Under the pieces are notes generated by a model. That model had not been told where the DNA came from. It ran no database searches and saw only the letters and a program-made list of their open reading frames with translations. A stretch of DNA of 34,119 nucleotides from an uncultured bacterium (GTDB lineage Bacteria > Patescibacteriota > Minisyncoccia > Phycocordibacterales > UBA9973). Location of the stretch: positions 1-34,119 of the forward strand of contig CAIVNB010000069.1 in the NCBI GenBank assembly GCA_903907175.1. Reading direction: 5' to 3'. Of the stretch, positions 32,000 through 34,119 are shown in pieces. Within the stretch, counting starts at the first letter, position 1. Every line of letters begins with the position of its first letter. A program made the position numbers and the translations under genes.

Positions 32000-32014
32000 A
32001 TAATTTGTCTAAAA

Positions 32015-32197
32015 CTAATTTAATAATAATTTTCTAATTTGTTCAATTTTCTCTTGTTCTTTTTGCTTTAAATAATCTGACACAATGTTTTTTTGTTCTT
32101 GTTCAAGTATTTTAATTTTAGACGTTGTATCATTATAAATAGCCTCAATTTTTTGGAGAGTTTCTCCTTCATTTTTATCTAATTGGCTATTATTCAT
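32015..32197 (-). CDS. Small coiled-coil hypothetical protein
   Basis: 60 aa ORF with TGATATACT 6 nt before its ATG; ends 15 nt before the next gene. Confidence 0.65.
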   Translation of the reverse strand: MNNSQLDKNEGETLQKIEAIYNDTTSKIKILEQEQKNIVSDYLKQKEQEKIEQIRKLLLN

Positions 32198-32332
32198 AGA
32201 TAGAGTATATCACAAAAAACCTTATAAAACAATTCCAAATACCCCCAATAGCCCTAAAATTAAGGCTTAAATATCAATGCGCGACCTAGTGGACGAAGTG
32301 AGAACTGCGATACGCAACCATAATGGTTATAT

Positions 32333-33364
32333 TTATATACCAGTTTTAGGCAAAAAGCTAGAAGCACTTGAAACCGCATAGCTTTCAATCTTACTTTTCA
32401 GCTTCTTGGCGTTGCCGTGGCTTACTAGCCCAAGATAGGATTGTATTGTTTCTGGCTTACCTTTTCGCCTCTCTATACCCCTAAACATCCTCTGTTTTGT
32501 AATAGTCCTAACCACTCTATGATCGGGAAATAAAACCCAGCCCAGAAAGTCCACGCCCGAGGCAACTGTGCTTATAGATACTTTTTTCGGATGCAGGTGG
32601 AGATTGAGTTCATTTTCAAGAAAATCTTTTATCTTGGGCAACATATCTACAAGCGACTGCTTATCATCCGATAAAATCACAAAATCATCGGCATAGCGAA
32701 TATAGTATTTTGCCTTAATTTTATGCTTCATAAACTGGTCAAACTTATTCATATAAATGTTTATAAATAATTGTGAGGTAAGATTACCAAGCGGAAGACC
32801 TTTACCCTTTTCGGTAGAATAAAAACTGCTGATAATCTCGTAGAGCAAAGAAACAATGTCAGTGTCTGGTATATAACTCTTTATCATTTCAAGCATCACC
32901 CCTTGGTCAATTGAAGCGAAAAACTTTCTTATATCTCCTTTCAAAACCCAAGCCGTTCTCGTATGATTTTTTGATACTTTGTAGGCAAACTTTCTAAACC
33001 TATCTATTGCTTTGTGTGTTCCCTTATTTACTCTGCAAGAATAGGAGTCGGCAATAAATGTCCTATCAAAAAATGGATACAGCACTCGGTAAATAGCGTG
33101 ATGTAATAATCGGTCCCGAACTTTTGCTTTATGTATATCTCTGGGTTTGGGGTCTGAAATCTTAAATGCTTCATATTCAGAATGTTTGTATGTTTTATTC
33201 ACTAGGTCCTGGTGAAGTGAAATTATATTAGCCATCAGATTTCTCTCAAACTCCTGCACATCTTTGCGAGATTTTTTGCCAACCTTAAACTCTTCCCACG
33301 CAGAGAGCAAGTTGTCTAACCAAATGATATAGTCATAATTATGAACAAGTTGAATGCGGGACAT
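32333..33364 (-). CDS. DGR-type reverse transcriptase
   Basis: KPRDI, RDRLLHHA, SYSCRVNKGTH, LKGDIRKFFASID, GLPLGNLTSQ (DGR-type SQ motif), YIRYADDF, VDFLGW; 343 aa with no maturase or endonuclease domain. Confidence 0.93.
   Translation of the reverse strand: MSRIQLVHNYDYIIWLDNLLSAWEEFKVGKKSRKDVQEFERNLMANIISLHQDLVNKTYKHSEYEAFKISDPKPRDIHKAKVRDRLLHHAIYRVLYPFFDRTFIADSYSCRVNKGTHKAIDRFRKFAYKVSKNHTRTAWVLKGDIRKFFASIDQGVMLEMIKSYIPDTDIVSLLYEIISSFYSTEKGKGLPLGNLTSQLFINIYMNKFDQFMKHKIKAKYYIRYADDFVILSDDKQSLVDMLPKIKDFLENELNLHLHPKKVSISTVASGVDFLGWVLFPDHRVVRTITKQRMFRGIERRKGKPETIQSYLGLVSHGNAKKLKSKIESYAVSSASSFLPKTGI
33325..33333 (+). promoter_or_regulatory. Extended -10 (TGATATAGT) leaderless promoter for avd, located inside the RT gene
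   Basis: 7 nt before ATG 33341, the same geometry as host promoters in this window. Confidence 0.6.
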
Positions 33365-33760
33365 ATTATTTATTCTACCCCCCCCCCCCCGCTTTTGCCA
33401 CTACTGGCAAAAGCGAAAAGCTGTTATTTACAGTGGATTACTTTTTACGAAACTTTGCCAAAAATCCACAAATATACTCTAGGGCAAAAGATTGATACTT
33501 TGTTTGTTGAGGTAATAGAGGCAATCTCTATCGCCACCTTTTTATCTCGTGAAGAAAAACAACCGTGGGTCCGACTGGCAATCAGAAAGACAGATACTCT
33601 CAAGATACTTTTGATGGTTTTATGGGAAGCAAAATCTATTGATAATAAAAAGTATCTTGCTTTATCTGTAAAAGTAGAAGAAATAGGAAAGATGCTCGGG
33701 GGTTGGAGTGGACAGCTCGCAAAACAAAACTCTCCCGCAATAAAGACGAGAGAGAAATGA
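33341..33760 (+). CDS. avd: Avd-like four-helix-bundle accessory variability determinant
   Basis: LPKIHKYTLGQKID, LKILL, Y..LS..VEEIGKMLGGW signature; adjacent to the DGR RT and TR. Confidence 0.88.
   Translation: MNKLNAGHIIYSTPPPPLLPLLAKAKSCYLQWITFYETLPKIHKYTLGQKIDTLFVEVIEAISIATFLSREEKQPWVRLAIRKTDTLKILLMVLWEAKSIDNKKYLALSVKVEEIGKMLGGWSGQLAKQNSPAIKTREK
33372..33400 (-). promoter_or_regulatory. Predicted RT promoter TGGCAA-17(AAGC+G13)-TAGAAT, leaderless
   Basis: -10 at 33372-33377 is 7 nt before RT ATG 33364; the spacer 33378-33394 contains the G13 run. The -35 match is weak. Confidence 0.55.
33378..33390. repeat. C13 homopolymer (simple sequence repeat)
   Basis: Thirteen consecutive C encoding TPPPP in Avd; no comparable G/C run was seen elsewhere in the window. 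Confidence 0.9.
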
Positions 33761-33983
33761 AAAGAGTTGCCAAAGCGGAGTGCGGGATTGTTGGAGTTCC
33801 AGTTGTTGTCCAGCCAGTTCCAGTTCACCACAACCTTGCCACCGTTCTCATAGAGATACGGGACATTCAGGTTGCCGTTGCGGTTCTGCACGAAATGTAT
33901 GGGATTTCTTCTAGTTCCACTGCCCTTTGAATACTCTCGGAGCTGTATCGTATTCGGCATAGTAATGCCCTAAAACCCCATAC
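33721..33983 (-). ncRNA. Putative DGR template RNA (structured 5' domain + TR + 3' hairpin/U-tract)
   Basis: -10 TATACT at 33986-33991; 5' multibranch stems at 33897-33983; TR; 9-bp hairpin at 33730-33754 followed by TTTTGTTTT. Confidence 0.6.
33766..33885 (-). repeat. DGR template repeat (TR); boundaries approximate
   Basis: Reads NRNGNLNVPYLYENGGKVVVNWNWLDNNWNSNNPALRFGN. 13 of 40 codons are AAC/AAT, and 32 of its 33 adenines are at codon positions 1-2. Confidence 0.88.
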
Positions 33984-34119
33984 CAAGTATATTCATTTTT
34001 TATGAAGTGCTACATACACCACTCTATTTGAAACCATAGTCGCAAATACTCTCAATGTATGGATACTGGTCTCGGTGGCAGAAAACCTTAATCTTCTACA
34101 TATTCACCTATCACCGATT

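Follow-up and report, generated by a model that had tools for sequence, protein, structure and literature searches.

We examined the junction of the avd and reverse transcriptase (RT) genes of a diversity-generating retroelement (DGR) in an uncultured Patescibacterium, and found a homopolymer of 13 cytosines (C13) within the 5′ coding end of avd. The window, meaning the whole stretch of DNA analysed, is a complete contig (CAIVNB010000069.1; C69) of 34,119 nt, which belongs to an 835-kb genome in 88 contigs with 33% G+C. Comparison with related loci makes it rather probable, in our estimation, that C13 is a slipped-strand ON/OFF contingency repeat that gates DGR mutagenesis and is conserved in Patescibacteria; we infer in addition that switching takes place within a clone and that retrohoming is lost in the OFF state.

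The avd and RT open reading frames (ORFs; 33341..33760 on the forward strand and 32333..33364 on the reverse) run head to head and overlap by 24 nt, with the avd ATG complementary to RT codon 8 and the RT ATG complementary to avd codon 8. An initial annotation of this DNA had assigned C13 (33378-33390) to avd codons 13-17 (TPPPP), downstream of an ATG at 33341 that the element TGATATAGT (33325-33333) precedes by 7 nt, and had proposed that a single-base slip in either direction would truncate Avd; all of this holds on the sequence. The gene is in frame at C13, and by translation a slip of +1 or -1 takes the frame of ATG 33341 to a stop at 33493-33495 or 33480-33482, leaving 51 or 46 amino acids. 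The C9 count of the window was matched by none of 100 window shuffles; across the 835-kb genome C-run counts drop about 5-fold with each extra base, and only three G/C runs of at least 10 occur. An AlphaFold2 (AF2) model of Avd, with mean predicted local distance difference test score (pLDDT) of 85, has helices at residues 19-36, 47-66, 70-96 and 102-130, forming a four-helix core from Leu19 (33395). Residues 1-8 and 10-15 score below 50, and in this model the leader that holds the tract looks like a structurally dispensable carrier for the repeat.

Relatives came from two sources. Alignment of the Avd core gave 423 relatives in species-representative genomes, the best 80 of which were kept, and a protein search gave 79 metagenome-contig loci. 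From this pool of 159 loci plus the window we removed exact duplicates, loci whose Avd identity was below 55% and loci with under 140 nt of upstream sequence, leaving 118 non-redundant loci. The named records are Patescibacteria nearly throughout. Four of the fetched loci (L001, L008, L014, L054) are short contigs with a Patescibacteria-type DGR in metagenome-assembled genomes (MAGs) labelled Bacteroidota, Methanosarcinales or Gammaproteobacteria, labels that are probably binning errors.

A simple repeat lies between the RT start and the Avd core in 110 of the 118 loci, bearing out the expectation that the tract would be conserved across homologous DGRs. The site holds poly-C of at least six bases in 95 loci (C6-C13, mode C10), a 4-nt repeat in 10, a 2-nt repeat in three, a 7-nt repeat in two, and no repeat in eight. 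At least nine unit types occur (C, CA, GA, CAAC, CAAT, GAAC, CAGC, CAGT, AGCAATC). All units in the 110 repeat-bearing loci are 1, 2, 4 or 7 nt long; none is 3 or 6. G/C runs of at least 7 number 92 at the 130-nt site, vs two in 561,973 nt of flanking sequence. One supported clade of 24 near-identical Avds contains C7-C12, five 4-nt units, a 7-nt unit and repeat-free members, and every 4- and 7-nt repeat falls in this clade of a quick, poorly resolved tree. By this comparison the type of repeat appears to be replaced faster than Avd itself changes, with the site retained. The repeat is found in independent assemblies from many studies, and one shared assembly error is ruled out because the repeat units vary.

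The length of the tract also differs between close relatives, a polymorphism that the initial annotation had proposed to look for in homologues. There were 13 clusters of loci with flanks at least 95% identical; three of these are one assembly filed twice, and among the 10 independent clusters five vary in tract length (C9/C8/C9, C8/C10, C5/C6, C10/C11, C10/C11). The five closest relatives of the window in the quick tree have C11, C9, C12, C11 and C11. Logan contigs of four lake-water runs of one study were compared at the tract: those from runs X1-X3 break inside the tract and none bridges it, and run X4 has a 397-nt contig, at depth 4.8, with C15 vs the C13 of the window. A database protein 98% identical to Avd has its core joined to another upstream frame through seven prolines, which implies, from the protein record, a much longer run in its gene. 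One further locus with 98% Avd identity (L081) has unrelated A/T-rich sequence at positions 1-65 fused to C18 at the start of its contig, probably a chimera formed at the homopolymer, and several other contigs start or stop within about 75 nt of the repeat.

Conserved coding continues from the Avd core back to the repeat. The codon at 33395 specifies Leu in 116 of 118 loci through six different codons, TTG accounting for only 55. Codon -1 is Leu, Ile, Phe, Met or Val in every locus, through 11 codons, codon -2 is Arg, Gln or Lys in 77, and no stop occurs at codons -1 to -3. This conservation implies that the reading frame extends upstream into the repeat. On the other side of the repeat, the upstream-ATG motif is present in 94 loci and its frame is open to the repeat in 93 of them; the seven stops counted in frame 0 all come from L060, a spurious motif match, and the other two frames contain 137 and 207. 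In 62 of 75 poly-C loci the first C is the second base of its codon, a constancy from which it follows that upstream indels come in threes. Frame 0 is the state of all seven repeat-free loci that have the ATG motif, and the few homologues with mixed proline codons or without a repeat all keep the frame of the upstream ATG. Reading by eye showed that in seven loci (L018, L025, L033, L046, L068, L073, L074) RT codon 8 is not His and the overlapping ATG is thereby lost; these have an alternative ATG two to four codons ahead of the repeat. The comparison suggests that translation starts upstream of the repeat and that the repeat is part of the ORF.

Two other starts were considered. The initial annotation had allowed for Avd starting at TTG 33395, after the tract; this was rejected as a general start, given that the position is an internal Leu codon specified in six ways with conserved coding upstream of it. 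Nor do homologues encode the prolines with mixed codons at constant length, another outcome it had allowed for, since the runs are mostly pure C and differ in length. A regular second start at ATG 33354, suggested by the frames of database proteins, is not conserved among relatives read by eye. The database avd proteins of the clade have at least three different called N-termini.

Genes of this organism appear commonly to be leaderless, and the genome as a whole looks largely so. The -10-like element ahead of avd has the form TGnTAnnnT. Of 357 long ORFs, 37 have a copy of this pattern whose end lies 6 nt upstream of the ATG and 10 have one at 7 nt, with a background of 0-2 at most other offsets. 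Motifs resembling Shine-Dalgarno (SD) sequences precede only 27 of 359 long ORFs, and in the upstream composition of the genome an extended -10 stands out, whereas no -35 signal is clear. Among relatives the element corresponding to TGATATAGT has TGA in 86 of 94 loci and A at hexamer position 2 in 93 of 94; by our mapping, that G and that A fall on the wobble positions of RT codons 13 and 12. We infer from this layout that the avd transcript most likely starts at or beside ATG 33341 and is translated from there. A leaderless mRNA has to initiate at its 5′ AUG, so that on a leaderless avd mRNA the ribosome would need to pass the tract. A search for MutS_V gave no match in this 92.4%-complete genome (11 of 14 control genomes match; MutL was not searched for), and with that protein missing such tracts should be very unstable.

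The mechanism we propose has the avd mRNA beginning at or beside ATG 33341, leaderless, with the extended -10 placed 7 nt upstream. Ribosomes would read codons 13-17 before reaching the four-helix core, and replication slippage by a number of bases not divisible by three would put that core out of frame, leaving the 46- or 51-residue products, so that Avd would be made only in cells with C10, C13, C16 and so on. Passages of Wu et al. 2018 (PMC5758913) state that Avd binds RT and that their association is required for retrohoming. Since DGR RTs need Avd for mutagenic retrohoming, the whole retroelement would be turned ON and OFF heritably and reversibly.

Several observations weigh against this reading. 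In a tally that leaves out the 24 of 118 loci without the ATG motif, the 76 poly-C loci divide 21/32/23 among frames 0, 1 and 2, and an in-frame excess is absent. Loci with other repeats divide 5/4/2 among the frames, and a non-coding tract would look alike. The missing excess possibly reflects populations that are mostly OFF, noisy assembled lengths, or partial correction of the frame at the RNA or ribosome level. Homopolymer lengths are error-prone in both short-read and nanopore assemblies, which makes single-base differences and assigned frames soft. Length variation within a population is hinted at by the Logan contigs, but these give no read-level frequencies and the depth of the C15 contig is low. 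In the quick tree 62 of 108 inner branches are open, so counts of independent events are rough. The presence of TTG at 33395 in the window makes some internal initiation conceivable there, and a hairpin that follows the tract (described below) could mean frame correction at the RNA or ribosome level, which is plausible in the close clade. As to activity of the window copy, its variable repeat (VR) is off the contig.

The initial annotation had gone further, proposing that one slip both frameshifts avd and alters the -35/-10 spacing of the RT promoter. We think this unlikely. The avd half of the claim is sustained by the site-conserved repeat and the coding continuity; the RT half finds no support as the conserved function. 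The layout on the RT strand is as annotated: ATG (33364-33362), 7 nt, TAGAAT, G13, AAGC and TGGCAA, giving a 17-nt spacer of which 13 are G. A TAnnnT hexamer abuts the G run in 47 of 75 poly-C loci, with a gap to the RT ATG of 7 nt in 28 and 10 nt in 12. Among loci with that hexamer, spacers of 14, 17 or 20 nt belong to frame 0 (4, 5 and 1 loci), those of 15 or 18 nt to frame 1, and those of 13 or 16 nt to frame 2; this register is built into the geometry of the clade, and accounts for the coincidence of in-frame avd with a 17-nt spacer. The terminator-like hairpin after the template repeat (TR) suggests that RT needs a promoter of its own, plausibly a near-leaderless one at the tract.

Against an effect on both genes, the hexamer TGGCAA matches TTGACA at 3-4 of six positions (3/6 for the -35-like hexamer by the lower count) and is dictated by conserved Leu-Pro codons, from which any selection on the hexamer is inseparable, so that such selection was rejected as a line of evidence. 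The genome signal is an extended -10 without clear -35, spacers among the loci are mostly 15, 16 or 18 nt, and a promoter spacer of 16 or 18 nt, as left by a 1-nt slip, is usually still functional. A tract that abuts the -10 retains the same -10-proximal bases at any length. Among relatives with 4- and 7-nt repeats, those read by eye (not tallied) lack a -10-like hexamer in the stretch from the repeat to the RT ATG. GTGGCA-18-TAGAAT appears in the consensus scan with 9 of 12 matches, and promoter-like sites in the scanned region were not above shuffles (4 vs 2.3 +/- 1.6). An effect of the tract on the RT promoter is possible in this clade, but is not the conserved function. The boldest form of the proposal we likewise consider doubtful: that DGR hypermutation is phase-variable across Patescibacteria with the repeat kept by selection, and that in the poly-C clade the in-frame lengths also give the 17-nt RT spacer, one slip switching both proteins through overlapping, face-to-face leaderless promoters.

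Another explanation, which we hold to be quite improbable, is that RNA polymerase slippage, or hairpin-aided ribosomal frameshifting on CCC, yields some in-frame Avd from a tract of any length, the tract setting a low and noisy amount of Avd and not a heritable ON/OFF state. Slippage on long homopolymers and hairpin-stimulated frameshifting are both established phenomena, and the nearly uniform poly-C frames fit such a process. From the last C of the tract onward the sequence can fold into a stable hairpin of 11 bp (-17.6 kcal/mol for 33390-33415 as RNA); across 25 distinct close relatives 91% of cells are paired, three pairs have compensatory changes, and none of 500 shuffles reaches the covariation score. 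Possible roles are those of an RNA hairpin within the avd message, a promoter of slippage, or an operator upstream of RT. The hairpin is however absent or weak in most distant loci, including many poly-C loci outside the close clade, so that a slippery run joined to a stable structure, as in programmed frameshifting, occurs in the close clade only. A conserved, fixed out-of-frame arrangement was not found either: poly-C frames are mixed, and repeat-free loci are in frame. Correction at the RNA level is insufficient because 2-, 4- and 7-nt repeats occupy the same site in 15 of 118 loci, and recoding on CCC fails for these. The difference in tract length between near-identical DNAs also speaks against it.

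That the tract is non-coding, with Avd starting from TTG 33395 or nearby and the run lying in the avd 5′ untranslated region and upstream of RT, where it affects only RT or is tolerated, is in our view very improbable. The bAvd profile and the AF2 fold both begin at about residue 19, 55 loci including the window do have TTG there, gene callers chose a TTG start for several database proteins, and the poly-C loci show no in-frame excess. On the other hand the 33395 position, with its six Leu codons, holds something other than a start codon in 63 of 118 loci, amino-acid conservation with synonymous variation extends to codons -1 and -2, and by reading about 15 loci have no ATG, GTG or TTG in core codons 0-15. 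An SD sequence is absent ahead of the TTG, where the sequence is C-rich vs the A-rich starts of the genome. The agreement of all seven repeat-free loci with the frame of the upstream ATG, and the lack of 3- and 6-nt units, likewise favor a translated repeat. A functionless by-product, either a neutral homopolymer in a genome lacking mismatch repair (consistent with the missing MutS match) or an assembly artefact (consistent with contigs that often break or join oddly at the tract), is close to excluded by the concentration of runs at the site (92 vs 2 in 562 kb of flanks), the rarity of comparable runs (three in 835 kb), the recurrence of the repeat in independent assemblies of many studies, and the swapping of repeat type with the site kept.

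The contingency-repeat reading is set within a cassette whose parts are mostly recognizable (Table 1). The bAvd match of the avd product has an E-value of 6.5e-11 and 43.1 bits against a cut-off of 40, with profile positions 19-104 on residues 37-123. The avd gene is inverted between TR and RT. The TR was recognized by comparison with L087, the window stretch being 78.7% identical to the VR of that locus vs its much closer match to the TR. Four relatives (L004, L005, L007, L087) have a second copy of the repeat 460-540 nt beyond the TR, and the avd-adjacent copy has A at 15/15, 20/22, 20/21 and 18/18 of the mismatches, respectively; because the mismatches sit at A of that copy, we take these relatives to be working DGRs, arranged as VR, TR, inverted avd and RT. 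A search for the window's own VR returned only the self match in the window and whole genome, and only about 225 nt of contig remain beyond the TR. The terminator-like hairpin downstream of the TR falls inside the 3′ end of avd, and the TR RNA may be a separate short transcript. An Rfam scan of 32000-34119 gave a single noise match (E 0.14).

Table 1. Features of the DGR cassette and of the avd/RT junction, in window coordinates (residue numbers for the Avd leader).
Feature	Position	Strand	Remarks
DGR reverse transcriptase ORF, 343 aa	32333..33364	-	RVT_1 (PF00078), E 3.4e-24; first 8 codons overlap avd codons 1-8
Extended -10-like element TGATATAGT, 7 nt upstream of avd ATG 33341	33325..33333	+	Inside RT coding sequence; leaderless-type layout
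avd ORF, 139 aa, reads ...STPPPPLLPLL...	33341..33760	+	bAvd PF22296
Disordered Avd leader holding the tract	residues 1-18	+	AF2 model
TAGAAT, -10-like hexamer abutting G13, 7 nt upstream of RT ATG	33372..33377	-	Sequence and consensus scan
C13 homopolymer (G13 on RT strand)	33378..33390	+	avd codons 13-17; proposed slipped-strand switch
11-bp inverted repeat, 33390-33400 pairing with 33405-33415	33390..33415	.	Begins at the last C of the tract
TGGCAA, weak -35-like hexamer	33395..33400	-	Complement of avd Leu19-Pro20 codons
Hairpin resembling a terminator, with T run, immediately beyond TR	33730..33754	-	9 pairs, then TTTTGTTTTG; consensus match only
Template repeat (TR)	33767..33893	- (RT strand)	92.9% identity over 127 nt to L087 TR

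The two other long G/C runs of the genome lie on other contigs. A G10 run on the minus strand of contig C48 (7023-7032) occupies codons 10-13 of a 145-aa DpnI-family ORF (PF06044, E 1.2e-8) that adjoins a DUF2726 ORF. Its layout is like that of avd, with an ATG, a few codons and then the G/C run, which makes this restriction-like gene a candidate for a second frameshift switch. On contig C49 (23917-23926) a G10 run abuts TATTAT, with TTGACA 9 nt upstream of the run and a 19-nt spacer between the hexamers; it sits 40 nt ahead of a 112-aa ORF with no Pfam match and is a candidate promoter-spacer switch.

To our knowledge the control of DGR activity is largely unknown. In the survey literature, as represented by parts of Roux et al. 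2021 (PMC8144416), many DGRs look inactive in a given sample, and a stochastic avd switch, if true, would partly explain them. It would also amount to second-order bet-hedging, a targeted mutator being placed under the control of a random switch, and part of the population would carry targeted mutagenesis as a heritable and reversible trait. Repeat-based phase variation, mainly known from host-adapted pathogens, would be extended to uncultured, ultra-small bacteria seemingly without mismatch repair. A consequence for annotation is that avd genes of this clade will often appear frameshifted. Our literature search found no paper tying DGRs or Avd to repeat-mediated switching, its scope excluding the supplements of PMC5758913 and PMC8144416, where possible avd frameshifts might be listed; the terms homopolymer, frameshift, avd and phase variation do not appear in Roux et al. 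2021 (PMC8144416), main text.

The window cassette shares order and strands (target/VR, TR, inverted avd, RT) with the B3 type of the Candidate Phyla Radiation (CPR), an architecture given as TR-(avd)-RT and as 90% of the CPR set in the relevant sections of Wu et al. 2018 (PMC5758913). Those sections mention no repeat at the avd/RT junction and use 'frameshift' only for TR-VR indels.

Translational phase variation by simple repeats is described, in portions of PMC3546556, PMC4965091 and PMC5084427, for poly-G/C genes of Campylobacter and Neisseria and for tetranucleotide genes of Haemophilus. The avd repeat is like these contingency loci in having a unit not divisible by three placed a few codons after the start, in differing in length between close relatives, and in that ON and OFF frames are both found naturally. 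It differs in that avd encodes an accessory protein of targeted hypermutation and not a surface or restriction-modification function, in that the host is a free-living or episymbiotic Patescibacterium whose avd mRNA is apparently leaderless, and in that the sequence upstream of a divergent gene is overlapped by the repeat as well. In two loci of a subgroup without RT/avd overlap (L062, L079), C11 is preceded by a pair of ATGs that are separated by 4 nt and stand in different frames. Haemophilus lic1 has a multiple-start design, which these two out-of-register ATGs before the repeat resemble.

In Neisseria porA and opc a poly-G/C tract lies between -35 and -10, and Haemophilus hifA/hifB has TA repeats at divergent promoters. 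Promoter repeats of NadA are treated in a part of PMC2791445. The window resembles the porA type in that its G run lies between -10-like and -35-like hexamers 17 nt apart, one tract being placed between divergent genes. It differs in having a weak -35 whose sequence is set by coding, in that promoters of the genome look -10 driven, and in that the layout is lost in relatives with longer units. In reversible mutator switches, repeats or mobile elements inactivate mutS or mutL. The proposed avd switch would share with them its stochastic, heritable nature and a mutagenic state confined to part of the population, whereas its mutagenesis would be aimed through a retroelement at one variable repeat and not be genome-wide, with the switch residing in the accessory gene of the retroelement itself.

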